Made by a program: the position numbers and the translations under genes | The notes under the pieces: generated by a model | What the model saw: only the letters and a program-made list of their open reading frames with translations | Told to the model about the DNA's origin: nothing | Database searches by the model: none | IMG/VR virus record: IMGVR_UViG_3300022752_000019 | Coordinates: 32,001 to 96,000 of that record | Strand: one strand, 5' to 3' | Length of the DNA stretch: 64,000 bases | DNA from: a virus | Shown here: one piece after another, positions 1,664 to 38,250 of the stretch | Layout: each line of letters starts with the position of its first letter | Numbering within the stretch: position 1 is the stretch's first letter

Positions 1664-2509
1664 TTACTCCTGGTCGTCCTGGAAGGCTTCGAGACCCGAG
1701 ATTTGGAAATCTTCGATCCCGCTGTGAATGACTTCGGTAACTGGTCTGTGTGAGGTCTGGATACCGTTGCTTCGGTTGACGATTCTACCACCACCAAGAC
1801 GACGTACGCGGACATCGTCGGTGTTCATCGCCAATCTTATTGAAGAGATGGTCTCATCCTCTCGGAACTCGTACTCAGAGGCTCTTCTCGAGCCGGTGAT
1901 TAGATCAAGCGATCTAAACTGAGGGGATTGTTTCGGCGTGGTTTCCCACGTCCACTGAAGCTGGAACGGAATGTTAACCTGACACATGATCAGCTGCCCG
2001 GGATCTCCCATGACAAGCTGACCCGGAGGACTCGGTGAGTTTACAGTCGGGGAGGGCCGTGCGATAGAGTAAAAGCCACCAGGGCTCTCCAACAGTCGCT
2101 GATTCACCCGAGTGTGGTGTGCGACGAGATGTGCAAGACGCATCGCGGTGATGTCAGAGTCCGCGAGCGTGTAGACAACAAGGTGACCAGCCAGCAGGTC
2201 GGTGCGCTTCCGGGCCCCAGTATTGGGGTTGTAGGACAACAAGTTGTCGATGCCGATGCCGGCGAACTGGTACGGGCCCATCACGACAGTGATTGCCGGC
2301 CGCTTGCCAACTACTTCCGTATTTAGGGGAGCCTGGCCCCGGATCATGATCTCCGTAACTTCATCATCGGGCTCCCAATGGAAGGTGCCCTTGGGCATCC
2401 AGTTAAAGAGTCCTTGAAGGTACTGCACATACAAACGCATGGCAAAGACGGCAGGGTCGTCACCTCTGCCGATCTCGAGTGCTGTGCGTCTGGTATGCGC
2501 GAAGCTCAC
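1664..2509 (-). CDS. Putative tail completion/terminator protein
   Basis: 281 aa, between neck genes and sheath; contains 'KRPAITV'. The call is mostly positional. Confidence 0.4.
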   Translation of the reverse strand: MSFAHTRRTALEIGRGDDPAVFAMRLYVQYLQGLFNWMPKGTFHWEPDDEVTEIMIRGQAPLNTEVVGKRPAITVVMGPYQFAGIGIDNLLSYNPNTGARKRTDLLAGHLVVYTLADSDITAMRLAHLVAHHTRVNQRLLESPGGFYSIARPSPTVNSPSPPGQLVMGDPGQLIMCQVNIPFQLQWTWETTPKQSPQFRSLDLITGSRRASEYEFREDETISSIRLAMNTDDVRVRRLGGGRIVNRSNGIQTSHRPVTEVIHSGIEDFQISGLEAFQDDQE

Positions 2510-2823
2510 TTACGACTCTTCTCCTCAATCTCGCGGCGCTTGTCCATTCTATCCCTGATGTACTCGGAAAGCGCGTAACTTCCGACCGCAGATGCAGCTC
2601 CGGCCGCTCCGGCTCCGAGAGATTGAAGGTGCTTTAGAACTTCAGCCTTTCTCTCCGGGCTCATCTTTGCGAGCCGGGAGGAGATGCCGGGCGTATCGAG
2701 GAGGCGGCGCGTTAGCGCGCCTCCTCCGATACCTCCAATCAGGGAGCCAGCTCCTGCTGCCAGAGTAGGAAGACCGACGATCTTGACGATGCTTTCCTTC
2801 TTTTCGGGTTTCTTTTCACTCAT
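2506..2823 (-). CDS. Small basic glycine-zipper protein
   Basis: 105 aa with AAGAGSLIGGIGGGAL and GAGAAGAASAVG segments; 4-nt overlaps with both neighbours. Confidence 0.65.
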   Translation of the reverse strand: MSEKKPEKKESIVKIVGLPTLAAGAGSLIGGIGGGALTRRLLDTPGISSRLAKMSPERKAEVLKHLQSLGAGAAGAASAVGSYALSEYIRDRMDKRREIEEKSRK

Positions 2824-3698
2824 AGTTTCACCCCGTACATCCCAAATACGTCGACGGTCGTTGCCTTGGAGGCTTCCTGCGTGTGTGCATGTTGGTAGTT
2901 CCGAGGAGGGACGAGCACCACTGTGGAAGTATCTACCTTGAGGGGGATCTTGTCCTCAATCGATCCTTTCTGGATCAATGCCATTTTGATCTCGGCGCGA
3001 ACCAGGGAGCCGGACATCGTTGTTCCACCGGACTCAACGACTCTGTACCTACGGTTCTGGTTATCAACGATCAAGTCAAGAGGCTTGATGCCAGGGCTCG
3101 GGCCGCACCGAAGCTGTGCCATCTGAACCCGGCGATGATCTTCGACCATAACTTGCTCAGTCTCAGGCATTGCGTCAATCTGCGCCCAGAAGGATGTCGG
3201 GTAGTGATATCCGCCGCTAAATCCTGTACCCCAGCACGTAGGACAGCGTGCGTCTATGGTCTTTCCAAGAACTGTGTCGTAGCAGGAGGGGCACCGCTGA
3301 CCAAATGACCTACGTGGAAACAGCCAACACTTGACTCCCACGAACTCCTCGAACAAGACGCGTTCGAGTCGAATCATCTCCGTGGCGAGGATGTTCGGAG
3401 CACCTTCCTTGTCAAACGTATCGGAGTAGATGCTGCGGTCCGTTGGGACGTGTCGGCAGCGAATTCGGTAGTACAGAGTTCTCGCATTGGTAGTAATTGC
3501 GTGAACGCTATTGTCTCGAATGAAGTACTGATCAATGAGCGGCCCAGCGATAGAGTCCCATGGTCCCGCCTCGGCCTCCGAGCGTTCCACGTAGAACTCA
3601 TACTGCTGAATGTCCTCCGTCGTCGGCTCAATCTCCCAAAACACGTCATTGTGGTTCAGAGAGAAGGAGACAACACGCTCATTTCTAATTTGCAGCAT
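2820..3698 (-). CDS. Neck/head-closure protein with FN3-like N-terminus and Zn finger
   Basis: W..YEFYVERS..GPW..YYRI beta-sandwich pattern; CPSC...CPTCWGTGFSGGY; located downstream of the capsid genes. Confidence 0.55.
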   Translation of the reverse strand: MLQIRNERVVSFSLNHNDVFWEIEPTTEDIQQYEFYVERSEAEAGPWDSIAGPLIDQYFIRDNSVHAITTNARTLYYRIRCRHVPTDRSIYSDTFDKEGAPNILATEMIRLERVLFEEFVGVKCWLFPRRSFGQRCPSCYDTVLGKTIDARCPTCWGTGFSGGYHYPTSFWAQIDAMPETEQVMVEDHRRVQMAQLRCGPSPGIKPLDLIVDNQNRRYRVVESGGTTMSGSLVRAEIKMALIQKGSIEDKIPLKVDTSTVVLVPPRNYQHAHTQEASKATTVDVFGMYGVKL

Positions 3699-4176: not shown

Positions 4177-4183
4177 GCCGGCC

Positions 4184-5696: not shown

Positions 5697-5714
5697 GTCA
5701 TCTCCTGTGTAAGT

Positions 5715-5750
5715 GAAAAGCCCCGGCCCGATGACCGGACCGGGGCTAAA
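5715..5750 (-). terminator. Intrinsic terminator after major capsid gene
   Basis: Minus strand reads AGCCCCGGTCCG-GTCAT-CGGGCCGGGGCT followed by TTTC. Confidence 0.75.
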
Positions 5751-9083: not shown

Positions 9084-10049
9084 TCAAGATTTCTGTTTTG
9101 TGCGGCGATTAGCGTCCTTGCGCTTCTTTAGGTAGTACCCTCCGCCGAGCGCAGTCGCGGCAGCGGTGCCACCCAGAAGCTTACCCTTATGTTTCGAGAG
9201 GAATGACGGGACTTCCTGCGCGGGTTCGGCAGCAGGAGGTGCCTTACGCGACCTCATCTCTGAAATCTTTTTCTTGAGCGCAGAGAACATCTCTTCCATC
9301 TTTTGGGTGTTGAGCCGCGTAGGACCGGCCTGCCCACTGCTGGCGATCTTCAGATTTCCGCGTGCCGCAGCTTGAGGGAAGATCTGAGCAGCAGTCGCAT
9401 CCCCAAGGGTATCGTTCGTATGAGCAAACGCCTCGGCAAGACGGGCGCGCGTACTCTTCTTCAGCTCTCGCCGATTGGCATTGACCGGACCCTCGTTGGT
9501 GTGGAGAGTCTTGCGGTACGTCGAGTTCTCGTTGGCAGTGCCAACACCCGCCATCGTCTCGGAATCGTGCTCGGCAGGACCACCCGCAGCGGCAGTCTTG
9601 TTGCCCATCAGCACGTCGTAGAGAGACTGACCTCCCGCCTGCTTGAACGACTCCAGTAGCGCCTTTTCGCCATCCTTGGTCGCCGCAGAAACCGTGCTCT
9701 GTGCGGGAGAGTTGCCTCCGACCAGCCCCCTCGGAGCAAGCTTGGTCTTGCCCTCTGAGGGAGCGACACCCTGAGTGCCAGAAGCGGAGGTCGGACCCTG
9801 CGCAGGGCTGGAGGCAGTTGCGCTCTTGTAGAAGTCGCGGATCATCTCCTGGCGAAAGGCGGCGACGGTGTCGTTGCCAGAGGCAGACAGAGAGATGAAC
9901 TCCAACGCGCTTGCGACTTCTTGTGCTTCCTTGATCAGCGAGGACTCGGTCCGAAAAGCGGAAGCTGACTTTTCTGTTTCGACAGGAGAGTGGGCCCGGG
10001 CACGAGCAGCCTCGAGGGCCTGATCAATCATGCTTCTGTAGTTGCTCAT
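9084..10049 (-). CDS. KxA-rich internal head protein (hypothetical)
   Basis: EKSAS, KEAQ, KSAT, KTAA, KIAS; C-terminal KHKGKLLGGTAAATALGGGYYLKKRK. Confidence 0.7.
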   Translation of the reverse strand: MSNYRSMIDQALEAARARAHSPVETEKSASAFRTESSLIKEAQEVASALEFISLSASGNDTVAAFRQEMIRDFYKSATASSPAQGPTSASGTQGVAPSEGKTKLAPRGLVGGNSPAQSTVSAATKDGEKALLESFKQAGGQSLYDVLMGNKTAAAGGPAEHDSETMAGVGTANENSTYRKTLHTNEGPVNANRRELKKSTRARLAEAFAHTNDTLGDATAAQIFPQAAARGNLKIASSGQAGPTRLNTQKMEEMFSALKKKISEMRSRKAPPAAEPAQEVPSFLSKHKGKLLGGTAAATALGGGYYLKKRKDANRRTKQKS

Positions 10050-10384: not shown

Positions 10385-11674
10385 TCAGACGTCGTAGCCT
10401 GCGTCCGCAAGCAGCCGAAGTGCAACCTCGTTCACGGCGTCGTCGTAGTCATACGCCGAAGACCGCTTCTCCTGGCCCTTCTTCCTGCGATCGTACAGCT
10501 TCTTGCCGCCGTAGGCGAGGCCGGTGGCAGCGACGGCCGTGCCGCCGCGAGCGCCGAGGATCTGACGCGCACGCTTTACCTTGTCCGGATCAAGGTCCTT
10601 GCCGTCCAACTTGCCATAGGCGGACCGGAAGAGACCTGGACCGTCCTTACCCGCGTCGAAGCCTTCGCCCTTCATGGCACTCATGTACGACCTGCCATAC
10701 CCCTTGATCTTATCCATGATGCCTTCCTTGGCATCGGCCGCAGCCTTGGGGTCCTCTGCTGCGATCTTCAGAAGCGCGTCGACCTCCATCTCGGTGAAGC
10801 CGGAACGCTTCTCCTGACCCTTCTTCCTACGGTCGTACAGCTTCTTGCCGCCGTAGGCGAGGCCAGTGGCAGCGACGGCCGTGCCGCCGCGAGCGCCGAG
10901 GATCTGACGAGCACGCTTGACCTTATCCGGATCAAGATCCTTGCCGTCCAACTTGCCGTACGCGGACCGGAAGAGGCCCGGACCATCCTTACCTGCTTCG
11001 AAGCCCTCACCCTTCATGGCGCTCATGTACGACCTGCCGTATCCCTTGAGCTTGTCCATGATGCCTTCCTTGGCATCATCCGCGGCAATCTTGTCAATCT
11101 CATCGGCGTAGGCGCGGGCCATGTGGCGACCCAGAATCTCTGCCTCGGCAAGCTTTTCCTGGGCGTCAGCTACCTTGTCCGTGGCGCTTTCGTCGCCGAG
11201 TTGCAGCGGAAGCACGTTCTCGACGTAGTGCTCGAAGAGCGCGGCGACGTCCTCTTCATCCATCTCCGAGAGATCGATACCCTCGGCAGATGCCGTCTTC
11301 TGGAAGAGATTAACGACCTCGTTGGATGCCGCTTCCTTTTCGGAGCCCTCAATCTGCTCCGGAAGCACATTCTCGACGTAGTGCTCGTAAAGAGCAACGA
11401 GCTCTTCCTCGCTCATCTCATCCAGGTCGATGCCTTCGGCGGCAGCGGTCTTCTCAAACAGTGCAACAATCTGCTCGTCCATGGCGGATGCCTCTTTCTT
11501 GGTGGAAGGTTGGGAAATGAACTGAGTGAACAGAGAACGGACCTGACCCTGGCTCAGGTCATCGAGATTGACTCCCTCTGCGGCAGCGGCCTTTTCGAAA
11601 AGGCGCACAGCGGCAGCTTTTTCGAGGTCCTCGGTCGTGACGCCCCGTACTTCAAGCTCCCGGAGGAGTGACAT
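10385..11674 (-). CDS. Scaffold-like internal head protein with acidic repeats and a duplicated 92-aa module
   Basis: Three LF(E/Q)K(A/T)A.AEG(V/I).L..(L/M) repeats, then two near-identical 92-aa basic modules; directly downstream of the protease. Confidence 0.75.
   Translation of the reverse strand: MSLLRELEVRGVTTEDLEKAAAVRLFEKAAAAEGVNLDDLSQGQVRSLFTQFISQPSTKKEASAMDEQIVALFEKTAAAEGIDLDEMSEEELVALYEHYVENVLPEQIEGSEKEAASNEVVNLFQKTASAEGIDLSEMDEEDVAALFEHYVENVLPLQLGDESATDKVADAQEKLAEAEILGRHMARAYADEIDKIAADDAKEGIMDKLKGYGRSYMSAMKGEGFEAGKDGPGLFRSAYGKLDGKDLDPDKVKRARQILGARGGTAVAATGLAYGGKKLYDRRKKGQEKRSGFTEMEVDALLKIAAEDPKAAADAKEGIMDKIKGYGRSYMSAMKGEGFDAGKDGPGLFRSAYGKLDGKDLDPDKVKRARQILGARGGTAVAATGLAYGGKKLYDRRKKGQEKRSSAYDYDDAVNEVALRLLADAGYDV
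10461..11077. repeat. Direct repeat, 2 x ~275 bp (10461-10735 and 10803-11077; period 342 nt)
   Basis: Manual alignment: about 23 nt differences, only 2 changing an amino acid. Confidence 0.92.
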
Positions 11675-13334
11675 GGTATCTCTCGGTGTGTGAGGAAACG
11701 GTTGGAGGGGCGTCTTCGGGAGCGTGTCCCTCAGCCTGCTGGCTCAATCCTAATCTAAGACCCGGCCAGTAGGCAACATGTAGCATGATGTTTGATAGCG
11801 CAACAGAGTCGTCAGCGACTTTTACATCATCGCCAATGTTGTCCGTAAACGCGGCAGGAAGGCTAACCGCTGCCAGATCTGGCTTCTTGTCTACAAGGCC
11901 CAGTCTATACATGTTGTACAGATCTGCAATCTCGTCCAGACCTTCAACCTCTTGTTCTTGCGGAAGCGGAAGAGCGGAGGAGTTTTTAATCATCCGAATC
12001 CGAATTGCAGCGGGCGCAAATGACCGCTGCTCAAGGAACGGACTCAGTAGCTCCATTACGGACTGCATGGCATCCTGCGGCACGAACGATGTCGCGTCGA
12101 ATGGAGAGGATGCCATACGGATTGGCCGGGGCGCAAACACGCAGTTGTTCTCGTAGAGATCATTTGCTAAATCTGGGTCTTTGCGAAGCAAAATAACCCG
12201 CATGAACTCACGAGGGCGAAGAATGAACCCAAGCCGGGCGGCTGCGCGAATGTTCGGACCTGGGTTGAGGGCCAGCGCGTCGAGGACATCGCGCGGCAAC
12301 ATTGGCAGACTCTCCTCTTCCTTGCGAAGGAGGCTCATCTGCGCGGGCGACGGAGCCGGGATGCGCTTCAGCATCTCAGCAACTTTGGAGAACCCGGCTT
12401 CCTTTTCTGTATGGAGATGGGGTGTATCTGCCTGAACTTCTGACGCGGATGCGATCTTCATCCCCATTGGTTGAAATGGGTAGATCGTCTGCGTGTACGC
12501 GTTGGAGCCGGACATCATCGGGGTGACGTTGGACATCACCTTTGCCGACCTCTCTGCTCCGACGAACACGAAGGAGTCATCGAAGAATCGGGGGTAGTCG
12601 TTGTAGACTCCGCACACTCTCCCATCCGGCAACATGGCCTTCATACCGTAGGGAGGGGCTGCTCCGCGCTGAACGTGCTTGCAGTACTCCATGGGAGTAC
12701 GCGCAATGAACCCACAGATCGAACAGCGATCATAGGGCACCTTGCTGCCCATACTCGAGTCTGGAAACTCTCCGTTCTCGATTCTTGAGTAGAGATCGAG
12801 CGCGCCCTGTTCCGCGCACATGCTTCGGATCAACTCGGAGACCAGAATGACGCGCTTCATGCGGTCATCCCAGAAGGCTCCGAGAATGAAGCCGTACGCC
12901 TTGTTCGGATCCTTATTTATGTGGTGCCGAAAACGATGCGCGTTGTAAAAGGTGGGGTATCCCCAGGTCAGAGATCCCCACCGAGGCAGTGCCTCAGTCT
13001 GGTTTGCAGCACGCCTCCTGGCATCGACGTCCCAAACAGGGATCTGTTCGAAACCCGGAGGAGTTCTTCTAAGCCCAGCTTCGGTGAACCAGTCACCTCG
13101 AAGATTGAACCCGACGTACTCTCCAGCACCCAGCGCCGAGTTCACGAGGTAGAGTCGACCCGGCTGGGCCTGGATCGACTCGATGAGCTCGATAACTTCG
13201 GGAAGATGCTCTCCGGAGGCAGTCTTGGAAAGACCATCGGTCTCTCCAAGGCCGTAAGACGATCCAGGCTCCACTCGATGAATGAGTGGAGCACCGGAAT
13301 CTGCTTTGCCGGAGAATAGAGAGTACTTCTCCAT
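11652..13334 (-). CDS. Prohead maturation protease
   Basis: FNLRGDWF, FRHHINKD, SSMGSKVPYDRCSICG...CKH resemble the His/Ser and Cys-cluster motifs of phage prohead proteases; lies upstream of scaffold and MCP. Confidence 0.75.
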   Translation of the reverse strand: MEKYSLFSGKADSGAPLIHRVEPGSSYGLGETDGLSKTASGEHLPEVIELIESIQAQPGRLYLVNSALGAGEYVGFNLRGDWFTEAGLRRTPPGFEQIPVWDVDARRRAANQTEALPRWGSLTWGYPTFYNAHRFRHHINKDPNKAYGFILGAFWDDRMKRVILVSELIRSMCAEQGALDLYSRIENGEFPDSSMGSKVPYDRCSICGFIARTPMEYCKHVQRGAAPPYGMKAMLPDGRVCGVYNDYPRFFDDSFVFVGAERSAKVMSNVTPMMSGSNAYTQTIYPFQPMGMKIASASEVQADTPHLHTEKEAGFSKVAEMLKRIPAPSPAQMSLLRKEEESLPMLPRDVLDALALNPGPNIRAAARLGFILRPREFMRVILLRKDPDLANDLYENNCVFAPRPIRMASSPFDATSFVPQDAMQSVMELLSPFLEQRSFAPAAIRIRMIKNSSALPLPQEQEVEGLDEIADLYNMYRLGLVDKKPDLAAVSLPAAFTDNIGDDVKVADDSVALSNIMLHVAYWPGLRLGLSQQAEGHAPEDAPPTVSSHTERYHVTPPGA

Positions 13335-13876
13335 CAGTCAGAACTCAAGAGCGAGCTGGTGGCCGCGCGCGCTCCCGTCTCTGCGGCGATATCGCGCGGG
13401 GCCTTCATCCTATTTTGGATGCTGGACAGCAACGCCGGGTCAAAGCGCGGTGCACTCGACGGATCGTCTGGATCCATGCGATTCGTCATGACCATGTCCA
13501 GGATCGTGCCGGCAATCAGTGGATCCTTAGAGTACTCAGGATTCATGCTTCTCAGTGTCTTAAATGCCATCCGTAGATTCGGATCATCGGGAGAGCCCAA
13601 CTGAGGGTTTACTTGTACGACTCTGCGTAGGTCACGGCTGAAGGTCAGCGCCCCCATCGTTGACTCAATGGCCCCAGGAACTTGTGACCCGGCGTACGCC
13701 AAAGTCGGCGCAGCTACTGCGAGTCCTCCAATCGCGGCCATGTTGGCCGGGGTCATAGAGATTCCAGCAACCTTGTTTAGCGAAGATGCCATCTTCTCCA
13801 GCTGCAAAAGGTCATGCTGACTCAGTTCACCACGGGCGTAGGCTGCGTACGCCTCTGCTGGCACGTTTACAGTCAT
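13334..13876 (-). CDS. KxA-motif virion protein (hypothetical)
   Basis: EKMAS and NKVAG followed by the hydrophobic AAIGGLAVAAPTLAYAG. Confidence 0.65.
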   Translation of the reverse strand: MTVNVPAEAYAAYARGELSQHDLLQLEKMASSLNKVAGISMTPANMAAIGGLAVAAPTLAYAGSQVPGAIESTMGALTFSRDLRRVVQVNPQLGSPDDPNLRMAFKTLRSMNPEYSKDPLIAGTILDMVMTNRMDPDDPSSAPRFDPALLSSIQNRMKAPRDIAAETGARAATSSLLSSD

Positions 13877-14949
13877 TTGGACTTTCCTCCTGGAGCCTTC
13901 TTAGGGTCCAATAAGCCAGACTTCTTGGCCGCAATCGCGCCCCCAACAAGTCCGACTCCAGCGACGGTCGAAAGAACCGGATGATCGCTAATTACCCGTC
14001 CGGCAGACTTTAACGCAGACGGGGAGATCTTACTGGCCGTCTTCTCTCCAAACAGCATAGAGGTCAGCGCACGATTCGCACCCTCAAGATCGTTCTCGAT
14101 CTCACCGAGTGCGATCTCAAGGTGAATGTGCCGCTCCTCAACCGCGGCGACCTTGGTAAACGCCGCCGGAAGAGGATGGTCCGGGTTGACGTCCCCATAC
14201 GATGCCGTCTTGGAGAGGTGCAGACCCGCAGTACGACCTTCCTTCGACAGAAGGTAAGCTGACAGATCGGACGCCACCTTTGTCGCAGTCTGCTGAGACG
14301 CGACACTCCAGTCCATGCCCGAGAAGCAGGCATGAAGTACGTCCTCAACAGCAATGCCATCTTTCACAGTGGCGTACGCAACCTTGGACAGCTCTCGGCG
14401 TGCGTGGAGGATCTCTCCCTCAGTCGACGCCAACTCCGCGCGAAGTGAGGCCGACGCCTCCTTCAGTGCGTCGTGGATTCGCTTCAAGTCGTGAAGACCC
14501 TGCGCCTGAGCAAACGGAGCACTGTGCTCGGTGTCTGCCTGCTTGATCACCTGGTCAAACGCATTCGCGGGCCTGAACTTGGGGGCACGAGGTGCTTCGG
14601 CTGAAGCAGTCTTTTCTGTCATAAGTCCACCAGCGAAAGAAGATGTACGCTTAGGCGCCGAAGCTACTTTTTCTGCGCGCAGAACTTCAGCCGCAACTTC
14701 CGCGTCCGGAGGATCGAACACGATGTACCGATCGGCGGAAGTACCCTCTTGCCTGTGCATTCGCTCGTATGTGTCGTGGTAGGTCATCTCGCAGATACGA
14801 CGAACATGCTCGGCTGTCAAGTTTGCGCCACACGCGTTTGCCTGCTTGACCACGGCCTCCGTCAGGGGCGTCCCGTTTGACAAGAAATCCGTGGTCGCCG
14901 CTTGCGCGAGACCCTGAAGGTATTCCTTGGTTACAGGATTTCCGAACAT
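13873..14949 (-). CDS. KxA-rich internal head protein (hypothetical)
   Basis: Likely start MFGNPV at 14949; the longer ORF would overlap the opposite HTH gene. About 9-10 KxA motifs; Gly-rich basic C-tail after the last EKTAS. Confidence 0.7.
   Translation of the reverse strand: MFGNPVTKEYLQGLAQAATTDFLSNGTPLTEAVVKQANACGANLTAEHVRRICEMTYHDTYERMHRQEGTSADRYIVFDPPDAEVAAEVLRAEKVASAPKRTSSFAGGLMTEKTASAEAPRAPKFRPANAFDQVIKQADTEHSAPFAQAQGLHDLKRIHDALKEASASLRAELASTEGEILHARRELSKVAYATVKDGIAVEDVLHACFSGMDWSVASQQTATKVASDLSAYLLSKEGRTAGLHLSKTASYGDVNPDHPLPAAFTKVAAVEERHIHLEIALGEIENDLEGANRALTSMLFGEKTASKISPSALKSAGRVISDHPVLSTVAGVGLVGGAIAAKKSGLLDPKKAPGGKSK
14618..14625 (+). promoter_or_regulatory. Candidate phage promoter motif GTCATAAG (inside antisense gene, ~340 nt before HTH gene)
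   Basis: Same motif as at the other plus-strand islands, but far from the start codon. Confidence 0.3.
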
Positions 14950-14967
14950 CGCCGACCCGGAGTGGAG

Positions 14968-16138: not shown

Positions 16139-16172
16139 GACTGACGCCCTGGCTTCGGCCAGGGCGTCAGTC
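16139..16172. terminator. Perfect 15-bp hairpin with TTCG loop between convergent genes
   Basis: GACTGACGCCCTGGC-TTCG-GCCAGGGCGTCAGTC; no U-tract; contains the terminase stop codon. Confidence 0.6.
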
Positions 16173-21868: not shown

Positions 21869-23374
21869 TCAGACCTGGTACGTCTTGAGACTCTTTAGCC
21901 CATTGATCACGTCCTCGAGAGCGAACATCGCCCGAACAGCCGCAGTCTTTGGGATGCTCTGGAGACCGATCTGTGCGGCAAGCACTACGCTCGCAAGCTT
22001 GGTGGACGCCTCCTCAAGCTGAGGCAGGAACTCGATGAACGTCTCAACGTTCTCGGGGTTGAGGAAGTTGAGAGCCAGGACAGCATCAACCGAGGCAGTG
22101 TCTACCAGGGCAGATGCCTTCTTGTCGAACGTGATCGCGGAGATCTCCTTCAAAAGGTTCACCCTCTGAGGGAACTGTGTCTCCAACAGCTCGACTGCCG
22201 CTTCCTTTAGAGCATCCTCGTACACCTCTTCCCGAGAAGAGAGAGGACGTAGCCCGAAGAGGCGAATGGGCTGTCCGGTGGACGCTGCCTTCTCGAGACA
22301 CGCGGCGCTGAGGTTCTGAGGCATGCCGGCAGCGGCAAGCCAGAACACCCCGTCTACCCAGTCATGCTCGCCCGATCCAATCTTCTCAAAGACCGGACCG
22401 CTGAGGCGACATCCTCCTTCCCAGGCACGAATCTCCACCATCGTCTCATAGGCGTTCGCCTGTGCCGCCTTCATCAGCTCGTTACCAGACGCAAGCTGAA
22501 TGGGGTTCTCGAGCGGCATGAACTTGTAGTCTGGAGGAATCGCGATGTCCGTCGTCGAGGACGCGGTTGGGCGTAGCAGCCCAGGAGAGGGAATGATGCG
22601 GATGTCGTTCCCATTCATGTCCTGGGCGGCGAAATAGCCATTCCCCTCTACAGTTACCTTGGTCACGATGTTGTAGGGCACTGTGCAGATGATCGCCTTG
22701 CCATTGGTCTTGACGAATACGCCAAGACCGCGGACATCCGGGTTCTCGGGAATCGGCAGATTGTGGCTAACGCCGATGAGAGATCCGGAGATACCCGGCT
22801 GTGCCGAGTAAGCGGACCCGTTTGTGAACAGTGCAATCCCGGTGGGCCCGCCCTGAATGGGATCGAACAGATTGGGAATGACGTGCCCGATGACCTGCTT
22901 TCCCGTTTCCGCGTTGGTGACCTTGTAGAGTCCGAAGGCCGTAACGGGAGCCATCTGTTCAACCAGAGGGTCCGGCTCAGCCTGAACGCCGGTTACAGTC
23001 GCAGCCCCCTGCTGATCCGCTGCCTGGAGCATCTCAGGAGGAAGCACCTGCTGCGCCTGTTGCGCGGAGACCTGTGTCTCCTGTGGCGCCATTCCGGCAG
23101 GAGCTGCGGATACCTTGATGACGTAACCGTAGCCCTGGGGCCGTACCTGAACAACATCGGTACCCGGGGTAAACCGAGTGGACGCAATCTTCGCCAGGGC
23201 GCCGTGCTCAATAATCGGCTTCGATGTTACTCGACGCAGGCATTCCATAACAGAAGCGTTTTTCTCAATCATTCTACGAACGTCAGCATCGGCGAAGGTA
23301 TCGTCAAAGCGAGCAAAATCGCTCCGGTTGATTGTACCGGCAATCGCGGAGCAGAGGCTGGCAGGCGTTTTCAT
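21869..23374 (-). CDS. KxA-rich virion protein (hypothetical)
   Basis: AKIAS, EKAAS, LKEAA, DKKAS, TKLAS, PKTAA. Confidence 0.75.
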   Translation of the reverse strand: MKTPASLCSAIAGTINRSDFARFDDTFADADVRRMIEKNASVMECLRRVTSKPIIEHGALAKIASTRFTPGTDVVQVRPQGYGYVIKVSAAPAGMAPQETQVSAQQAQQVLPPEMLQAADQQGAATVTGVQAEPDPLVEQMAPVTAFGLYKVTNAETGKQVIGHVIPNLFDPIQGGPTGIALFTNGSAYSAQPGISGSLIGVSHNLPIPENPDVRGLGVFVKTNGKAIICTVPYNIVTKVTVEGNGYFAAQDMNGNDIRIIPSPGLLRPTASSTTDIAIPPDYKFMPLENPIQLASGNELMKAAQANAYETMVEIRAWEGGCRLSGPVFEKIGSGEHDWVDGVFWLAAAGMPQNLSAACLEKAASTGQPIRLFGLRPLSSREEVYEDALKEAAVELLETQFPQRVNLLKEISAITFDKKASALVDTASVDAVLALNFLNPENVETFIEFLPQLEEASTKLASVVLAAQIGLQSIPKTAAVRAMFALEDVINGLKSLKTYQV

Positions 23375-23385: not shown

Positions 23386-24390
23386 TTAGTTCTTAGACTT
23401 GCGGAACTTTTCGTGTTCCTTGGATCGATGGGAAACTCCGAAGCCAAGTCCAGCCCCTACAAGGCCAGAAAGAGTCGGAACTCCGTACCTCTCCAGGGCC
23501 TTAGCATCGGAAATATCCTTGTAATTAGGCTCAAACGTTAGTAGTCTTAGCTCTTCTATCTTAGCTCTTCTGTCTCCCACTGACGCGACGGCCTCGTTCT
23601 TGCTCTCAAGAATGTCCGCCCTGTCCTTCTTCATCTTCTGAAGTTCAGACCGAAGACTCATGACCTGCTGCTCTTTGGCCCGTAGCTCCTTTAAATGCTC
23701 ATTGAGATAGGCCTTTGCAATTAGCGTATTCTGATCTTTTGGTCCCTTGGCTTTTCTTAGATCTCGATATGCAGTTTGTGAATTGCTTACAGACTGCTTT
23801 AAGGATTGAATATCGTTGGTCATGAGGTCGTTGATCTGCGACATCGTCGAGGAGTATGCCTTCTTGAGATCCTCCGTCTGTGAGGCATAGCTTGCGATGC
23901 TTTTTTGTAGATCAGAGATAGCCTTTTTGTGGTCTCCCATCTCTGTCTGTACAGTCTTTGAAAAGGCAGACCGCGCCTTAGATAGTCGAGACGTCGGACC
24001 AATACCGCCAAGAACAGCTCCGGCGATACCTCCAACAGCCGCTCCCCGTGCTCCTTCTCTTACCGCATCATCGCCAGAGCCCTTTGCGCCGACTCCGGCA
24101 CCTGCCAGCGCCCCCGCTCCAGCGGACAGCCCAACGCGATGAGTAACCGGATTCTTGAAGATCTCCGAAAGTCGCGAAGTCACGGAAGCTACCTTGGCGC
24201 GACCTGCCTCAAGGAAGTCGTCGCAAACACTTTCCGGTTCCGCCTCAAACGAGAACTTCTCGCAGTATCCTGCGCCGTCATTTAGCGCCCGGAAGTACGA
24301 GCAGGTCTCACAGCGAGCATCGGAGGCGGTTGGGCGATAGTTGGGAGCATCTTCTACTCCGGCAATCTTTGGCCAAAACGGAATCATCAC
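23386..24390 (-). CDS. Cys-motif + glycine-zipper + coiled-coil protein (lower GC)
   Basis: PKIAG, a small C..C/C/C domain, AKVAS, Gly zippers, a long basic coiled coil, and a C-terminal Gly zipper. Confidence 0.7.
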   Translation of the reverse strand: MMIPFWPKIAGVEDAPNYRPTASDARCETCSYFRALNDGAGYCEKFSFEAEPESVCDDFLEAGRAKVASVTSRLSEIFKNPVTHRVGLSAGAGALAGAGVGAKGSGDDAVREGARGAAVGGIAGAVLGGIGPTSRLSKARSAFSKTVQTEMGDHKKAISDLQKSIASYASQTEDLKKAYSSTMSQINDLMTNDIQSLKQSVSNSQTAYRDLRKAKGPKDQNTLIAKAYLNEHLKELRAKEQQVMSLRSELQKMKKDRADILESKNEAVASVGDRRAKIEELRLLTFEPNYKDISDAKALERYGVPTLSGLVGAGLGFGVSHRSKEHEKFRKSKN

Positions 24391-25643
24391 ATACCTCCGC
24401 CGGAAGGAGAGACCAGTTTATACGAGCTTCCGTCCTTGTAGAAGAGCAAGAACATGCCCTGAATCGGCCGACCAGATCGATGAGCGTCTACTTCTGCCTT
24501 CATGAGCGGTCCGAGGATCTTACGCAACGCCGTCTGGTCCTTTTCCTTCTCGAGATTAGCTGCTACAGACTTAGGAACGCCAACTGTATAAGGAGTGCCG
24601 CTAATCTCGTAGTACTGTAGGTCCATTGGCGCTACACCCGCAGCCACCTTAAACTTACTACCCTTGAGAACCACGGACGCCGGAACCCTGTTTGCGGAAC
24701 CAAATGCAAGCTGAGCAGCGGCCCCCTTGAATTCCTCTACACCTTCCTCCCTGGTTCCGACTCTGGGCAGGCCCAGCCTTTCACGTTCGCGCTGTCTGCT
24801 CATTAGGCCGTATTCTTTTAGACCGATGTTGACAGCACTGACTCCCGATGAGATAGTAGCAGAGCCTTTTGCGCCCTTGAGCGCACCTTCTACCAAGGAG
24901 GACCCTGCCTCTCTGGCGGATTTTGCTCCTCGATACCCTCCGAGAGATAGACCAACACCCATCGGCAGCATGATTGACTTAAGGCTATCCTTGGTTCGAG
25001 CTACCAAGCCTTGTTGCGTAAGAAATCGATCCTTGGCCTCTGCTTTACGAAGGTTGGCGAGATTTTCAAGCTGCAAAGGCGTCATCTGAAATGCGTCAGT
25101 AGTCCGCAACTCTGCTGAGCTCAGCTTGTTGATGCCCATGGACGATGCGCCGTCGCCAACCACACGTCCAAAACCCTGACGCTGTTGGTATGGCGGATAC
25201 ATCTGATCGATCAGGGACTTCTGCCTCTGTGGCTGATCCGCCGGACCCTGGAACATGGCAGGGTTGAGAAGAGACGCCTGAACCCTTTCGGCAGTCAGTG
25301 GGTAAACGTTTCCGCCGAGTTCGAAGGTGTGAAATGGCTGAAGTTGGCGGTCTGCCACAATGATCGGGATGCGCACGATGTTCTGCGGGTTCTTCGAGGC
25401 AGTGGCCGCAGCGGGATCGTTCTTCGCCATCACAAGAGCATGGCCGAAGGCAAAGCCCGCTTCGGGCTCTACCCGCTGCATGTGAAGGTCAATCTCGTAC
25501 TGAGATAGGAACGGGAGCTGAAGGTGCAGGTTTGACAGAACGTGCGCCGGCCACTTCGCATCATCATCGGGCATGGCTGCGATCGACGCCTGCTTCTCGA
25601 AGAACGCATGCGGATTGACCGGCTTGAGGAACAGGGACGTCAT
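24387..25643 (-). CDS. Virion protein with genome-typical N-half and lower-GC C-terminal module
   Basis: EKQAS near the N-terminus; composition changes after NKLSS (25116-25127). Confidence 0.7.
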   Translation of the reverse strand: MTSLFLKPVNPHAFFEKQASIAAMPDDDAKWPAHVLSNLHLQLPFLSQYEIDLHMQRVEPEAGFAFGHALVMAKNDPAAATASKNPQNIVRIPIIVADRQLQPFHTFELGGNVYPLTAERVQASLLNPAMFQGPADQPQRQKSLIDQMYPPYQQRQGFGRVVGDGASSMGINKLSSAELRTTDAFQMTPLQLENLANLRKAEAKDRFLTQQGLVARTKDSLKSIMLPMGVGLSLGGYRGAKSAREAGSSLVEGALKGAKGSATISSGVSAVNIGLKEYGLMSRQRERERLGLPRVGTREEGVEEFKGAAAQLAFGSANRVPASVVLKGSKFKVAAGVAPMDLQYYEISGTPYTVGVPKSVAANLEKEKDQTALRKILGPLMKAEVDAHRSGRPIQGMFLLFYKDGSSYKLVSPSGGGM

Positions 25644-26762: not shown

Positions 26763-27182
26763 TCAGCGGTCCGACGAAGGGCGGCCCAGCAGATATCCAG
26801 TTCCAAGAGCCCCAGCACCCAGCGCCCCAGCTCCGAGAGTTCCGGCTCCAATAAGAGCCGCCGTGTCTCTATTGGCAGCAACTCCATCTGATGCGCGGGT
26901 CAGCGCCTTGCCGAGTGTTTCACGCACTCCTCCGGCAGTAGCCCCTCCCGATAGCATTCTGCCCAGACCACCGGCTGCATTTCCGACTGCGTCGCCGACC
27001 GCAGCTAAGCCGCGTCCTGTCGCCGATAGAACAGCCTCTTTCTGCATGTGTGCGTCGAATGCTCGAAGATAAGCTTCCGGCATCTGCCCGTCGCAAGTGC
27101 CAAAATTTCTGATGATGAACTCTGCACGCTTTTCTTGTTCCACGAGTTGAAGAGCAACCCGATACGCTGCAATCTTGTTCAC
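26763..27182 (-). CDS. KxA + glycine-zipper virion protein
   Basis: NKIAA, EKRA, QKEA, then GAGTLGAGALGAGALG. Confidence 0.7.
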   Translation of the reverse strand: MNKIAAYRVALQLVEQEKRAEFIIRNFGTCDGQMPEAYLRAFDAHMQKEAVLSATGRGLAAVGDAVGNAAGGLGRMLSGGATAGGVRETLGKALTRASDGVAANRDTAALIGAGTLGAGALGAGALGTGYLLGRPSSDR

Positions 27183-33692: not shown

Positions 33693-33693
33693 G

Positions 33694-34325: not shown

Positions 34326-34327
34326 GG

Positions 34328-36394
34328 TCAGCCGATGGCTCTTCCTGGGTCTGCCTGCGGAGTTCCGTTAGGGGCTGGATTTTGCTGCGCGTTCAGCGGG
34401 TTGACCTGCGATCCCTTGTCATTCATTAGCTGAACAACCAGTTGATACAGCGGTGGGTTCTCAGTCTGCATCTGCTGAAGCGCCTGATACATTGCCTGCT
34501 CACCCTGTTCTTTCTTTAGCGTACGGAAGTACGCGACGGCGCGCTGAGCGACGTACCGCAGGTCTACTCCCCCTGAGCCCGGTTGAATCTGCGACTGAAC
34601 GCCTGCCATGGCAGCAGGCATGCCGGATTCGTTGGGAGCGCCTGCATTTTCTGCATAGGCAGTTGCGCCCTCTGGGAGCCCAGGAGTTTGCTGAGCAGCA
34701 TCGCCAGCCGGGGCCGCCTGCTGCTGTGCAGCGGCTTGCGCGGCGGCTTGCGTGGCGGCTTGCGCGGCGGCGGGGTCTTGTACTCCCATTTGCTGCTGGG
34801 CCTGCTGCATCTGCTGCTGCATCTCCATCTGCGCCTGACCCTGCGCCTTTAGCGTAAGGGCCTGTGCCTTCGCCTGGTAGCGTGAGGTACGAAGCTGCGC
34901 CTCTCCTTGAATGTCGGCAGAGGCAACCTGCATCTTGCGGTTGGCTTGGATCTGCTTCTTGATTTCGCGCCCCATGCGCTCAGATTCAAGATCGAAGTCC
35001 TCGCCCAGTTCCTCCATGAGGCGATGGTCGCTGATCTTCTGCGCTTGGTTGAGCTGGAGGTAGAACATGCTCCTTTGGAGGTCGTCGGCCATGCGGAACT
35101 TGTCGAACCGCGAAGAAACCCGCGGCCACTCCATGAATGCCGCAATCTTCTGCATAATGAAGACGTTGATTAGCTCATGGCGCTGCTTGTTGTAGCCGAG
35201 GAACATGTTCTCGAGCGCGCGGAGCGACGTGCTGGACCCGGACCATTGAAGTCCGCCGAAGATGAACTCCACCGGAATGCCTGCGCCTGCGAGCATCTGT
35301 TCGGCCAGGAGTCTCATCTCCTGGTACATCAGAAGGGCTCGCCCCTGGCCGCCGATCTGCTGGAACCCGATGTTGACAGGTAGGACCGGGATGTAGTTGT
35401 GATCCCGTTTCCACATGTTGATCTCTTCATCGACCCGACGCTTCCAGTTCGTCAGGTTGTAGGCCCCATAAGGCCCTTCATTACCTCCGGTGTTCTGTCC
35501 TGGGAAGATCATCCGCATCGGGACGATATTTTCCATAAGGATCGCTTCGTTCGCCTTCTTCATTACCTGAAGGTAGAACGCGTCCTTCAGGAGCGGGAAG
35601 ATGAGGGGTGTTCCCCAGCCCTGGTCCTTCTGCGCGATTGTCGGGCGCTTCAGGTGGTACAGGTTCTCCTCTGAGAAGAGGAGTGACTTGCCTGCGCGCG
35701 CGGCCTCGAGGAACTCAAGAGGCAGGCTCTCGATCTCGTCACAGTCCCCCATTTTGATGTCGTTGATCACGCTCTTGGGCAGGCGGAAGTAGTACTTCGT
35801 CTGCCCAGTGATCTCGTTGTGCTTGATGTCGATGTTTTCCGGGTTCCAGCGGACCAGTCGAATCTGCCGGAACGAGCGGATGTACACATCGTGCTGCTTG
35901 GCGTAGCCCTCGTGGCCGCAGTCGCACTTGTGCAGGTAGAAGCGAGAGTCGCGCCACTTGTAGCGAAAGCGGTTGGTCTTGGCACGATAGCGTGCCCCGC
36001 AGGAGCTACAGATCAGGTACTTCTCAAAGGGAAGGAACACGGAGACAAACGCGTTCCCGTACACGAAGTAGTCCAGGCCGACCTCGACCTGGAACGAACG
36101 TAGCTTGAGGTGGTCTTCGACCTTCTTGTAGAGCTTGATGACCTCTGGATCATCAGTCTCAAAGATCAGAGGCGTCACCGGATACTCGGCCATCTTTGAA
36201 CAGGCCGCGTTGATCACTGGATTGGTTAGGAAGTAGTACCGGCACCACTTGTGGAGTTCGTGCTGATTGGCCGGAAGAAACTGCTGGGAGATGTCAAAGA
36301 ACGGCGATGGGTAGCGGATGCCAAAGCCTCGCCCACCCTCGGCAGTAACGGGCCGAGGGTTGAAGCGGTTGACCTCGCTTGTGACGACGTTCAT
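34328..36394 (-). CDS. Portal protein
   Basis: NPVINAACSKMAEYP, DYFVYGNAF, and LYHLK...GWGTPLI portal-type motifs; Gln/Ala-rich C-tail. Confidence 0.8.
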   Translation of the reverse strand: MNVVTSEVNRFNPRPVTAEGGRGFGIRYPSPFFDISQQFLPANQHELHKWCRYYFLTNPVINAACSKMAEYPVTPLIFETDDPEVIKLYKKVEDHLKLRSFQVEVGLDYFVYGNAFVSVFLPFEKYLICSSCGARYRAKTNRFRYKWRDSRFYLHKCDCGHEGYAKQHDVYIRSFRQIRLVRWNPENIDIKHNEITGQTKYYFRLPKSVINDIKMGDCDEIESLPLEFLEAARAGKSLLFSEENLYHLKRPTIAQKDQGWGTPLIFPLLKDAFYLQVMKKANEAILMENIVPMRMIFPGQNTGGNEGPYGAYNLTNWKRRVDEEINMWKRDHNYIPVLPVNIGFQQIGGQGRALLMYQEMRLLAEQMLAGAGIPVEFIFGGLQWSGSSTSLRALENMFLGYNKQRHELINVFIMQKIAAFMEWPRVSSRFDKFRMADDLQRSMFYLQLNQAQKISDHRLMEELGEDFDLESERMGREIKKQIQANRKMQVASADIQGEAQLRTSRYQAKAQALTLKAQGQAQMEMQQQMQQAQQQMGVQDPAAAQAATQAAAQAAAQQQAAPAGDAAQQTPGLPEGATAYAENAGAPNESGMPAAMAGVQSQIQPGSGGVDLRYVAQRAVAYFRTLKKEQGEQAMYQALQQMQTENPPLYQLVVQLMNDKGSQVNPLNAQQNPAPNGTPQADPGRAIG

Positions 36395-38250
36395 GACTGA
36401 TTGTCCTTTTTCTGCCCGAACGAACTATCGAGCAAGTTTGCAGCGCCGCCAGCAATATCTGCGCCGATATTTTCAGCAGTCGTTCCAATTGCCATTCCGC
36501 CGACTGCCGGAACAATGCCTTTGGCACTGAAGCCTGATCTGCCCGTGTTGGTGAAGAGATTGGACTTACTGAGCCCGAGGTTTCGTCCGCCAAAAAGATG
36601 ACCCGTTGCCGACGCAGTGCCGGCAACTGCCAGTCCCCTTGCAAGTCTTTCTGCGGTACTTCTCTTCTTTCCGGTTTCTGGATCAACCTCCTCAGAGGCA
36701 GCACCGACTCCTCCCAGAACAGGCGCCGCAACTTCCATTACTCGCTCGCCCGGGCCGTAGTACCACATGCCGCGATTTGTTGTTGCAGTGCCTGCGGCAG
36801 CCTGTTCTTGAGCCCGCCTGCCTAAAGTCCGGTACATGCTCTCGATTTTTCCATAGTCAACATTTTGGCCAGCCTGCGCCGCAGAGTCCATTTCATCAAT
36901 TAAAGACCGCAGGCTCTTAGCGGAGTCTTCGTCAAACGCCACGTTTTGGTACTTTTGCCTTCCAGCACTAAGAAATCCTGACCGGCGCAGACTGTCCACG
37001 ATTCCTGGGGAGCCTTGTACCTCATCAAGGGCTTTAAACTGGTCAACTCTACCAACAAGTGGTTTGTTGGCCGCTGCTTGACTACGCAACGTCTCATCTA
37101 AGTTGCGCAAACTTTCCGACATAAGCTCTACTCGCTTAGACTGCGCAGCCCCTCGTGCAAACTCATCGGCTCCTTCTCCTACGTAGCTTGCACCGGTCCT
37201 TAGCCCACGACCCATTGACGTTATGGGCTTAGTTACGACCTCCTTAACTGTGGTCAAGAACTTACCGGCCCGGGCCGGGTTTCTCAGCAACGCGGCGCCG
37301 ATCAATCCCGCGCCGCCTACAGACACCGGATTAACGTGCTTCAAGATTGGAGACGATGGTTGTTTGCTCTGAGTCCCAGGGATCTGTACCTGATCATCAG
37401 GGTTTATAACGTTGTGTGCCGAAATAGCTTTTGGAACATCCGCAATTCCTGCCGTCTTTGTCGCCTGCAATGAAGCAGTGAACTCAAGCAGATCTCCGAT
37501 GCCCTCCATGAGCTTCGATGCGCAGATGTCGTCAGCAGTCTCTTTAAGCGTATGACCGCCGACCGACAGGGCGCGGACAAGCGCCTTCTGAACTCCCGCA
37601 GTCGGGAGTTTCGTGACGACTTTGACTTTGGAGCCGTTGAACTTCTTTTTTAGCTCCTCATCAGGTTCCATCTTCAGAAGGCTGTCGGTGTTGTAACGAT
37701 CGGTGCAGTAGCTACAGAGACCGTCTTCTTTTGGCTCTTCCTCGTTTCCGCACTCACCGCAGACCTGCGTGACCTTTGAGATCAGGGGGTTGAGGAACTC
37801 CAGCGGCTCAGGCACATACCAGATCCCGGACTCGTGAAGCTGCGCCGCCATGTATCGACGCACCTCCTCAGAGAACTCTGGGATGTCGCCGATCGTTCCA
37901 AGGTCCAATCTGATGCGATTCGCAGCATCCACTGCGAGCATTAGGTCGGAGACCGACTGATTGTCGATGTGAGATACGGACGGGATCTTTCCAACGAGCG
38001 CCTGGGAGACCGTGTGGAACGTCTCCCAGCTCGTCCAAAACTGATCGTGGTTGGCGACAGACACCGCCGCCATCAACTTGATCAGAACTACGCGCGGAAT
38101 GTTGATCTTGAGACGGCTCTCCACTGACCGCTTGATGACAAACGGCTCCCACTCCAACGCACCGACACCGAAGAGTCGGAGGTAGGATCGAAGAAGAAGA
38201 AGCGGGTGCGTCTTCTCATTCTTGAAGGTCTGAAGATCAGTAGCCTCCAT
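36391..38250 (-). CDS. Virion protein with Zn-ribbon N-half and lower-GC glycine-zipper extension
   Basis: Likely start MEATD at 38250; CGEC...CSYC; after TKTAG (37447-37458) the composition shifts. Confidence 0.7.
   Translation of the reverse strand: MEATDLQTFKNEKTHPLLLLRSYLRLFGVGALEWEPFVIKRSVESRLKINIPRVVLIKLMAAVSVANHDQFWTSWETFHTVSQALVGKIPSVSHIDNQSVSDLMLAVDAANRIRLDLGTIGDIPEFSEEVRRYMAAQLHESGIWYVPEPLEFLNPLISKVTQVCGECGNEEEPKEDGLCSYCTDRYNTDSLLKMEPDEELKKKFNGSKVKVVTKLPTAGVQKALVRALSVGGHTLKETADDICASKLMEGIGDLLEFTASLQATKTAGIADVPKAISAHNVINPDDQVQIPGTQSKQPSSPILKHVNPVSVGGAGLIGAALLRNPARAGKFLTTVKEVVTKPITSMGRGLRTGASYVGEGADEFARGAAQSKRVELMSESLRNLDETLRSQAAANKPLVGRVDQFKALDEVQGSPGIVDSLRRSGFLSAGRQKYQNVAFDEDSAKSLRSLIDEMDSAAQAGQNVDYGKIESMYRTLGRRAQEQAAAGTATTNRGMWYYGPGERVMEVAAPVLGGVGAASEEVDPETGKKRSTAERLARGLAVAGTASATGHLFGGRNLGLSKSNLFTNTGRSGFSAKGIVPAVGGMAIGTTAENIGADIAGGAANLLDSSFGQKKDNQS

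Follow-up and report, generated by a model that had tools for sequence, protein, structure and literature searches.

Head genes marked by a K-x-A-(S/A/G) motif in an IMG/VR virus record: a possible system of protease-released glycine-zipper payloads

The internal proteins of phage T4 are hypervariable payloads located behind a conserved capsid targeting sequence that is cleaved by a protease, and their lysines touch the DNA (PMC3012670). The head and ejection proteins of phiKZ and SPN3US are made with long propeptides at the N-terminus (111-254 amino acids, aa), which contain several internal sites and are removed at a short motif (PMC10052503), and virions of the phiKZ type carry an RNA polymerase (PMC10052503, PMC5694885). 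In both T4 and SPN3US the N-terminal propeptides are removed at short motifs and the C-terminal parts are kept (PMC3012670, PMC10052503). Here we describe head genes found in a 64,000-nucleotide (nt) stretch of viral DNA (the window), bases 32001-96000 of the 164,603-bp IMG/VR virus record IMGVR_UViG_3300022752_000019, in which copies of a K-x-A-(S/A/G) motif mark the borders between conserved domains and variable, mostly basic segments with glycine-zipper helices. The genes from 1664 to 39367 are all on the minus strand and constitute the virion module, which contains an intein-bearing large terminase, a putative portal, a putative capsid protein, and a fused beta-beta' RNA polymerase; portal and capsid protein are putative assignments based on size, position, and conservation, and about 25 proteins of the module have no Pfam or PHROG match. 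An initial annotation of the window regarded such an arrangement as not described as a system, which is too strong, since the T4 internal proteins (PMC3012670) and the phiKZ/SPN3US propeptides (PMC10052503) are of the same kind; a literature search combining glycine zippers and phage capsids found no description of such a system.

The likeness to T4 IPI, IPII, IPIII, and Alt, which are cut by gp21, lies in a conserved short leader ending in the protease motif and followed by diverse payloads; in T4 these payloads enter the head, are released by the prohead protease, and are injected along with the DNA, steps that here are proposed. Unlike T4, whose motif is (L/I)-x-E and whose payloads are separate small genes with compact anti-restriction folds, the motif here is K-x-A-(S/A/G), and most payloads are in-frame appendages or inserts in conserved head genes and consist of glycine-zipper helices. 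phiKZ, 201phi2-1, and SPN3US (gp175/gp245) are similar for their many head proteins cut at a three-residue motif, their long multi-site propeptides, and their self-processing protease; in contrast, gp245 cuts after Glu, and the proteases, between which no sequence match is detectable, belong to different families. To our knowledge, codon-exact cassette replacement at the sites and glycine-zipper payloads are undescribed for phiKZ-type phages.

Other systems share single features with the locus. Herpesvirus assemblin (S21) is a capsid serine protease with catalytic His and Ser that releases the scaffold from the capsid interior, and its maturation sites are (V/L/I)-x-A|S; the likeness concerns Ala at P1, Ser at P1', and a capsid maturation protease with His and Ser, while here Lys replaces the aliphatic residue at P3, herpesvirus scaffolds have no variable cargo, and structure searches with the protease candidate, open reading frame (ORF) 11652, gave no significant match to that fold. 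Encapsulins enclose ferritin-like cargo in HK97-fold shells, directed by a short peptide or by fusion; a ferritin/Dps-like domain is a cargo cassette in three relatives of the virus, which, unlike encapsulins, packages DNA and would release its cargo by proteolysis, and no encapsulin-type targeting peptide was identified. Class II bacteriocins are small cationic GxxxG helices made as inactive precursors and activated by a cut behind a short conserved motif, and acidic carriers are similarly paired with basic modules here, but without a double-glycine leader or an export system; in a direct test Bacteriocin_IIc (PF10439) scored 16.9 bits against a cut-off of 27.1 and no GG leader was present. 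The Pfam glycine-zipper families (Gly-zipper_Omp PF13488, Rick_17kDa_Anti/Gly-zipper 2TM PF05433, and Gly-zipper_YMGG PF13441) have the same G-x3-G-x3-G helices and helix-loop-helix hairpins; however, they are bacterial envelope proteins, mostly lipoproteins, whereas the phage modules lie behind protease motifs, have no signal peptide, and score below the cut-offs. What is distinct here is the motif (Ala at P1, Ser at P1', Lys at P3), the in-frame cassettes with codon-exact borders, and the glycine-zipper payload.

In an unbiased scan of all x.yz tetrapeptides, K.AS (the dot being any residue) ranked first with a 6.0-fold enrichment: the 29 proteins of the virion block contain 30 copies where shuffles predict 4.9, and the other ORFs of the genome contain 11 against 10.5 expected. 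Such a distribution, with many head proteins sharing a short motif for which the remaining genome shows no enrichment, is a feature of systems processed by a prohead protease. The known motifs with Glu at P1 (L/I-x-E or S/A/G-x-E) do not describe it; having no Glu at P1, the locus would work like the T4 and phiKZ systems with a different protease and motif family. K.AS is enriched 4-12 times in all twelve relatives tested, down to 37% identity in the major capsid protein (MCP). The relatives come from three sets of sequences: 38 loci around the capsid gene, with MCP identities between 94% and 37%; six loci that surround ORF 25656; and five large relatives, each represented by 40-60 kb. The codon choice differs from copy to copy of the motif, so that the signal is at the protein level and is not a DNA repeat. 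An origin of the motif as a DNA-level repeat or recombination site was considered and ruled out on the variable codons and because no tandem arrays were found.

The genes discussed below are all on the minus strand.

2506..2823, minus: stand-alone 105-aa module with two glycine-zipper helices and basic ends; seven orthologues, 29-66% identity
3685..4209, minus: conserved leader of 52 aa with KVAA (nt 4054-4065) at its end; the module behind it (nt 3688-4053) has two glycine-zipper helices
5771..6898, minus: putative MCP, the anchor for finding relatives; matched 38 loci at 94-37% identity
7913..9043, minus: variable part (aa 1-307), then KEAS (nt 8111-8122) and a conserved helix-Gly-helix C-domain (aa 308-376)
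9084..10049, minus: carrier N-domain up to KIAS (aa 1-237, nt 9339-10049); the basic tail behind it (nt 9087-9338) has one glycine-zipper helix
10385..11674, minus: acidic carrier (aa 1-197, net charge -30) with three LF(E/Q)K(A/T)A(A/S)AEG repeats, then two tandem 114-aa modules
11652..13334, minus: predicted head maturation protease (aa about 41-296; phrog_18299) with a leader ending in KTAS (aa 37-40)
13873..14952, minus: multi-site head protein with six K.AS copies, the last being KTAS (nt 14032-14043), then a 52-aa basic tail with one glycine-zipper helix (nt 13876-14031)
21869..23374, minus: conserved 501-aa protein with five K.AS sites, whose N-terminus is an insertion hot spot in relatives
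23386..24390, minus: Cys-rich N-domain (aa 1-69) with KVAS (nt 24184-24195) at its end; the variable part behind it has three glycine-zipper helices and a coiled-coil
24387..25643, minus: N-domain (aa 1-176) ending in KLSS (nt 25116-25127), 129-aa glycine-zipper insert (aa 177-305, nt 24729-25115), K-G-A-A (aa 306-309), conserved C-domain (aa 306-418)
26763..27182, minus: small protein with an x-N-K-I-A-A-Y leader, conserved at aa 1-61, the rest variable with 26% Gly and zipper helices
36391..38304, minus: conserved N-domain of about 264 aa, KTAG (nt 37447-37458), then a variable 351-aa part with glycine-zipper helices and an E-x-D-P-E-T-G-K-K-R loop
38237..39367, minus: head protein with six K.AS sites against 0.14 expected, conserved in each of the five large relatives; it may be a scaffold- or core-like protein that is cut into small pieces

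The initial annotation had predicted that the carrier parts are conserved and the post-motif parts variable, with breakpoints at the motif, and this is borne out by the homology ends of the relatives and, at the codon level, by three very close ones. Right homology ends fall at a motif in 38 of 165 cases (15.4 expected) and left ends in 36 of 89 (7.3 expected); by gene, this holds for 17 of 18 right ends in ORF 9084, 6 of 7 left ends in ORF 7913, 5 of 7 ends in ORF 24387, and 21 of 28 in ORF 11652. A broader test, with a crude definition of segments, found 30% of the variable segments starting near a motif against 18% in the null. The capsid genes of L002, L003, and L004 are 99.2-99.9% identical in nucleotides. 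At three independent sites the alignable blocks of these loci (mostly 95-98% identical DNA) nevertheless stop inside the K-x-A codons or at most 3 nt away from them: one site is at the tail in the orthologue of ORF 13873, one is where the ORF 7913 C-domain begins, and one is at the module in the orthologue of ORF 3685. In particular, between L003 and L004 the nucleotide identity is lost inside the K-x-A codons in ORF 13873 and right after K-T-A in ORF 3685, and the entire ORF 2506 orthologue is an unalignable cassette that is replaced whole. Judged from these alignments, cassettes have been replaced allelically within a very short time, and their borders are at the motif. The non-synonymous divergence (dN) of the modules is 2-5 times that of the carriers.

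The single genes show the same borders. The homology of ORF 9084 stops at aa 237-241 in 17 of the 18 distinct relatives, KIAS being aa 234-237, and downstream of KIAS the orthologues have unrelated sequences of 10 to >500 aa. In ORF 7913 conservation is limited to aa 308-376 and homology begins at KEAS; its variable part contains two copies of a glycine-zipper hairpin (aa 17-75 and 212-271), the second directly after KMAS at aa 203. The N-domain of ORF 9084 and the C-domain of ORF 7913 occur in one ORF in six relatives, with or without an insert between two motif copies. The homology of ORF 10385 stops at aa 195-203 (KIAA being aa 195-198) in relatives with up to 87% MCP identity; each of its two modules is led by KIAA and ends in a glycine-zipper helix with a KKLYDRRKK tail, and a 284-nt direct repeat, 91% identical with a spacing of 342 nt (window 10461-11086), indicates a recent tandem duplication of the KIAA-led module. 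Relatives of ORF 13873 with up to 81% MCP identity end at aa 297-302, without the last KTAS and without the tail; five mutually unalignable alleles of the tail share one design, in which a linker and an end that are both basic enclose a Gly/Ala-rich helix. The module of ORF 3685 has 33-39% identity in phages with 90-94% MCP identity.

In the second half of the block, orthologues of ORF 21869 have N-terminal extensions of 126-421 aa in G002, G003, G005, and L043, with K(I/Y)A(G/S) at the join in G002, G003, and L043; the extension-free orthologues of G001 and L040 have no motif there. The homology of ORF 23386 with G001 (72% identity) ends at aa 68, and in G001 the Cys-rich domain is fused in one ORF with the N-domain of ORF 24387. 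At the site of the 129-aa insert of ORF 24387, L040 and L041 have just K(I/L)SS, 11 aa, and KLAG, and G003, G004, and G005 have 330-840 aa. At this hot spot, after an ORF 24387-type N-domain, G003-G005 have a ferritin/Dps-like domain (Pfam PF00210) that is not in the window; it scores 35.3 bits in G004, 31.0 in G005, and 24.4 in G003 (gathering threshold 24.5; E 1e-8 to 3e-5). K-(A/Q)-A-E stands before the domain in each of the three, and K-T-A-S behind it in G004 and G005. The ferritin-containing head polyproteins are 577-1022 aa long:

L052:7246-8976, plus: 35.3 bits
L055:8092-10368, plus: 31.0 bits
L058:14301-17366, minus: 24.4 bits

The N-domain of ORF 36391 is a separate ORF of about 262 aa in five relatives, ending just before the motif, and in G001 and G002 the ORF after the N-domain gene begins with a 14-15-aa leader and K(Q/C)AG; ORF 36391 also gives a sub-threshold score of 21.1 bits against PT-TG. 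For ORF 26763 the module had been placed after KEA, and the homology break is instead at aa 61-81.

All ten genes named in the initial annotation carry basic, glycine-rich zipper segments where it placed them, and the motif positions quoted there are right on the minus strand (KIAS 9339-9350, KTAS 14032-14043, KVAS 24184-24195, KLSS 25116-25127, KTAG 37447-37458), as is the description of ORF 2506 as a stand-alone two-helix module. A module need not lie directly behind a motif: in ORF 9084 and ORF 24387, gaps of about 55 and 45 aa, respectively, separate the two. If a segment counts as zipper-like when 18 aa include no fewer than 5 Gly and no more than 1 charged residue, the block contains 17 against 2.3 expected, about a 7-fold over-representation. 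The ten segments that are variable or lie behind a motif all have a net positive charge (+5.5 charges/100 aa, 13.3% Gly), whereas the conserved parts of the same genes have -3.4 charges/100 aa and 6.2% Gly. In the relatives the density of glycine zippers is 3.85/1000 aa in the variable parts against 0.51 in the conserved parts (7.5 times). The G-x3-G-x3-G helix pattern is present in the ORF 2506 family, where G26, G30, and G34 are invariant; the invariant positions of the seven orthologues include A22, A25, G26, G30, G34, G35, G75, and G81, and the AlphaFold2 model of ORF 2506 is all-helical with low confidence (predicted local distance difference test, pLDDT, 57). The acidic carriers, such as the ORF 10385 N-domain and those in 13873-14952, 36391-38304, and others, are joined to basic modules, and this pairing would follow, by analogy, the logic of anionic propieces that mask cationic antimicrobial peptides.

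The lower GC and different codon usage ascribed to the modules hold in part. The GC content at third codon positions (GC3) is 0.56 in the modules, 0.64 in the carriers, and 0.71 in the core genes, reaching its highest value in ORF 5771 (0.87); the pooled difference between modules and carriers is significant (Fisher p = 5e-6) and has the same direction for 12 of 12 amino acids. However, the shift is modest and not universal, the duplicated ORF 10385 module (GC3 0.77) and ORF 3685 being exceptions, and the overall GC of the modules is not consistently lower.

A phage-encoded head maturation protease is present within the head gene module. The profile phrog_18299, annotated as head maturation protease, matches 15 of the 19 ORF 11652 orthologues (best E 4.5e-10) and ORF 11652 of the window itself at aa 126-223 (E 3.8e-4); H137, H138, and S194 are invariant in the alignment. 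Homologues include gp13 of Gordonia phage Stormageddon, annotated as 'capsid maturation protease', and gp222 of phage Arash. The protein is itself marked by the motif: KTAS and KIAS (aa 293-296) are in low-pLDDT linkers flanking the modelled core (residues 45-245), and KIAS and KEAG (aa 311-314) flank an insertion hot spot with 60-113 extra aa in relatives, followed by a conserved C-domain (aa 311-560).

Two cultured phages extend the comparison to much greater distances:

L060: Vibrio phage D69, OZ195729.1
L061: Salmonella phage Arash, OQ632216.1

Their capsid protein or protease has just 24-34% identity to those of the window, yet the K-x-A-S code is present; ORF 5771, which has no Pfam or PHROG match and whose MCP role is inferred from position and conservation, is weakly similar (24.5% identity) to a region over an unannotated gene of D69. 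K.AS is the top tetrapeptide in the head genes of both phages (18 copies against 1.9 expected in D69, 8.8-fold in Arash). Both have a protease homologue, stand-alone basic glycine-zipper proteins beginning with M-x-K-x-(A/S)-S, and an acidic multi-site protein, which in D69 contains 10 motif copies in 269 aa; the records label the zipper and multi-site genes merely as hypothetical or structural. The list of Arash particle proteins obtained by liquid chromatography-mass spectrometry includes the glycine-zipper proteins Gp224 and Gp213 and the protease Gp222, and a sigma factor and the RNA polymerase subunits beta and beta', which are separate proteins in Arash, rank with its most abundant entries (PMC10585845), a likeness to the virion RNA polymerase of phiKZ-type phages. 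A literature search found no paper on Vibrio phages D69, D181, or D148.

We propose that the head maturation protease encoded by the phage itself, ORF 11652, recognizes K-x-A with S, A, or G (sometimes E) after it, and that the head-module genes of this clade are in effect small polyproteins. The conserved, mostly acidic N-terminal domains would join prohead assembly as carriers or propeptides, and the segments between or after motif copies would be interchangeable payloads, here mainly basic glycine-zipper helices or hairpins and in relatives also a ferritin/Dps-like domain and other repeats. The payloads would enter the prohead either by covalent fusion to a carrier or through a short N-terminal leader ending in the motif, as with the T4 capsid targeting sequence, and would be cut free on maturation; the freed modules might then stay with the DNA and be ejected, and their marginally hydrophobic cationic helices may insert in the host membrane and/or neutralise DNA charge. 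Since the cut would separate payload from carrier, nearly any sequence would be tolerated, and the sites would become hot spots at which alleles are replaced, segments duplicated, and genes fused or split. We give the whole chain a probability of about 0.5, and a higher one to its first half, in which the motif is the protease site and the head genes are polyproteins.

Several results weigh against this proposal. The protease fold is unconfirmed: the AlphaFold2 model of the ORF 11652 N-domain has a pLDDT of 55, and in a Foldseek search with it many T4 gp21 and herpesvirus protease chains are listed, all with E-values >0.2; a VIA comparison of this pLDDT 55 core with T4 gp21 (5jbl) gives Z 3.2 and a root-mean-square deviation of 4.1 Å over 109 aligned residues, and a profile search of ORF 11652 against PDB sequences found no match. 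Several proteins have the motif at residues 3-6 (M-x-K-I-A-A), where a cut would remove only about 5 residues, so that a docking or targeting-tag role is possible as well or instead. The hydrophobicity of the zipper helices is only marginal (Kyte-Doolittle mean over 19 residues 1.2-1.6; Hessa energy, summed, +3 to +6 kcal/mol), and the modules of the window are under every Pfam glycine-zipper cut-off: the ORF 7913 hairpins score 20.6 against 25, 18.5 against 24.2, and 11.6 against 28.9 bits, the other modules have no match to these families, and the insert of one relative reaches 28.5 bits against a cut-off of 28.9. The lower GC3 of the modules is equally compatible with relaxed selection and with foreign origin, and the synonymous divergence (dS) is saturated between the window and its closest relatives, too high for a dN/dS estimate of purifying selection on the modules. 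No module family common to different hot spots was found by homology search with and without low-complexity masking; the idea that modules are gained by shuffling of cassettes between sites, suggested initially, is therefore not supported and was dropped. Finally, the Arash proteome comprises 116 of 272 proteins, including ribonucleotide reductases, with low specificity, and reports full coverage of the multi-site acidic Gp223 (PMC10585845); for these two reasons it neither proves packaging nor shows processing.

The last point bears on the reading in which the motif is not cut but is bound by scaffold, portal, or capsid interior, or carries a lysine modification, and the proteins stay intact in the virion. 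Near-complete mass-spectrometric coverage of multi-motif Arash proteins agrees with it, as do the copies at residues 3-6, odd for propeptide sites, and the invariant Lys, a typical modification or contact residue. We consider it improbable: a maturation protease gene is present and is bracketed by the motif, the assemblins of herpesviruses, relatives of the prohead proteases of phages, have (V/L/I)-x-A|S as their cleavage site, a density of up to 10 copies in 269 aa is reminiscent of scaffold proteins that undergo degradation, and the two copies 11 aa apart between domains in L040 and L041, together with the split and fusion variants that break at the motif, are what polyprotein processing predicts. 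If the motif is cut, the basic-flanked zipper helices might instead anchor the head-assembly proteins, including the protease, to the host inner membrane as the site of prohead assembly; the cut would then free the prohead, and the modules would remain in the membrane and never be packaged. The tails of ORF 9084 and ORF 13873 and the protease C-termini of Arash and D69 do look like tail anchors, with a basic stretch, about 20 small or hydrophobic residues, and a KKR-type tail; but the tails are missing in many relatives and are thus dispensable for assembly, their hydrophobicity is under the usual membrane-insertion threshold, many modules are internal or multi-copy hairpins and not terminal anchors, and glycine-zipper proteins are in the Arash particle list, a low-specificity dataset (PMC10585845). 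We hold tethering to be decidedly unlikely.

A further reading accepts the motif as a protease site and sees in the sequence behind it largely neutral filler in a safe harbour: the cut would sever such sequence from the functional domain, after which it would be expelled or degraded like scaffold, and insertions, duplications, and fast drift would build up there with no function of the payload itself. Lengths from about 10 to >500 aa, relatives without any module, lower codon adaptation, a dN 2-5 times that of the carriers, the absence of homology among hot spots, and the general expectation that propeptide fragments leave the head (PMC10052503) are all in agreement with it. It is nevertheless unlikely in our opinion, as independent unalignable alleles retain the basic helix-plus-zipper architecture, zipper positions are among the ORF 2506 family invariants, the variable parts are 7.5 times enriched in glycine-zipper segments, one hot spot has a folded ferritin-like domain, and distant cultured relatives keep stand-alone module genes; by the invariant positions, the shared design, the zipper density, and the ferritin domain the payloads look functional. 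The proposal of protease-released payloads can be given a more specific form, which is tentative and rather unlikely: the modules could be a new class of virion-delivered, protease-activated membrane-active peptides, harmless as fusions to acidic carriers, freed at K-x-A|S, and ejected with the DNA and the virion RNA polymerase, that open or depolarise the inner membrane; their hypervariability would result from an arms race with host envelopes or defences, and the site would be a general plug-in slot that also carries the Dps-like ferritin.

If the motif is the protease site, it would be a previously undescribed cleavage code shared by a deep and almost unannotated clade of 165-190-kb phages, including cultured Salmonella and Vibrio phages, and the mature head proteins and cargo would be predictable from sequence. 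The codon-exact borders suggest that proteolytic processing can create evolutionary plug-in slots in essential structural genes, possibly a general principle for phage mosaicism, and such slots may be a handle for engineering cargo into capsids. Glycine-zipper payloads, and in relatives ferritin-like ones, would add to the kinds of protein known to be brought into cells by phages and would echo the loading of encapsulins.

Some minor observations concern leaders and hairpins. The same leader, M-(D/N)-K-(I/T)-A-A-Y, opens several unrelated proteins, two of which continue with HPLW; all ORF 26763 orthologues begin with M-(D/N)-K-I-A-A-Y. The proteins with this leader, in window coordinates (negative values lie outside the window in the genome), are:

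26763-27182, minus: window ORF
-10880..-10215, plus: genome ORF
-3840..-3286, minus: genome ORF

The family of the ORF 7913 hairpin (GG.G(Y)(L/A)S, acidic/basic loop, K(K/R)R, GG..G), for which a hidden Markov model was built, is not confined to the virion block. L007 has it too, L043 has it at another place in its genome, and in the present genome it recurs in two genes on the plus strand:

-13969..-12818, plus: genome ORF with the hairpin
-10880..-10215, plus: genome ORF with the hairpin

The nearest Atlas structural clusters of this hairpin are Gly-zipper_YMGG and Rick_17kDa_Anti, with TM scores of 0.5-0.56 that give a lead only. The idea of a P22-scaffold-like coat-binding role for the conserved 36-aa ORF 7913 C-domain was addressed by complex prediction with the capsid protein, which scored 0.00 and is uninformative either way.

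Further genes of the window include:

16167-19187, minus: large terminase with intein (Intein_splicing + LAGLIDADG_3)
27192-33551, minus: fused beta + beta' RNA polymerase, 2119 aa, inside the virion module
42900-45545, plus: DnaB-like helicase with intein (Intein_splicing + LAGLIDADG_3)

The terminase intein corresponds to aa about 90-519 and is missing in 8 of the 9 relatives compared; the RNA polymerase gene is split in G003 and has two large inserts in G005.

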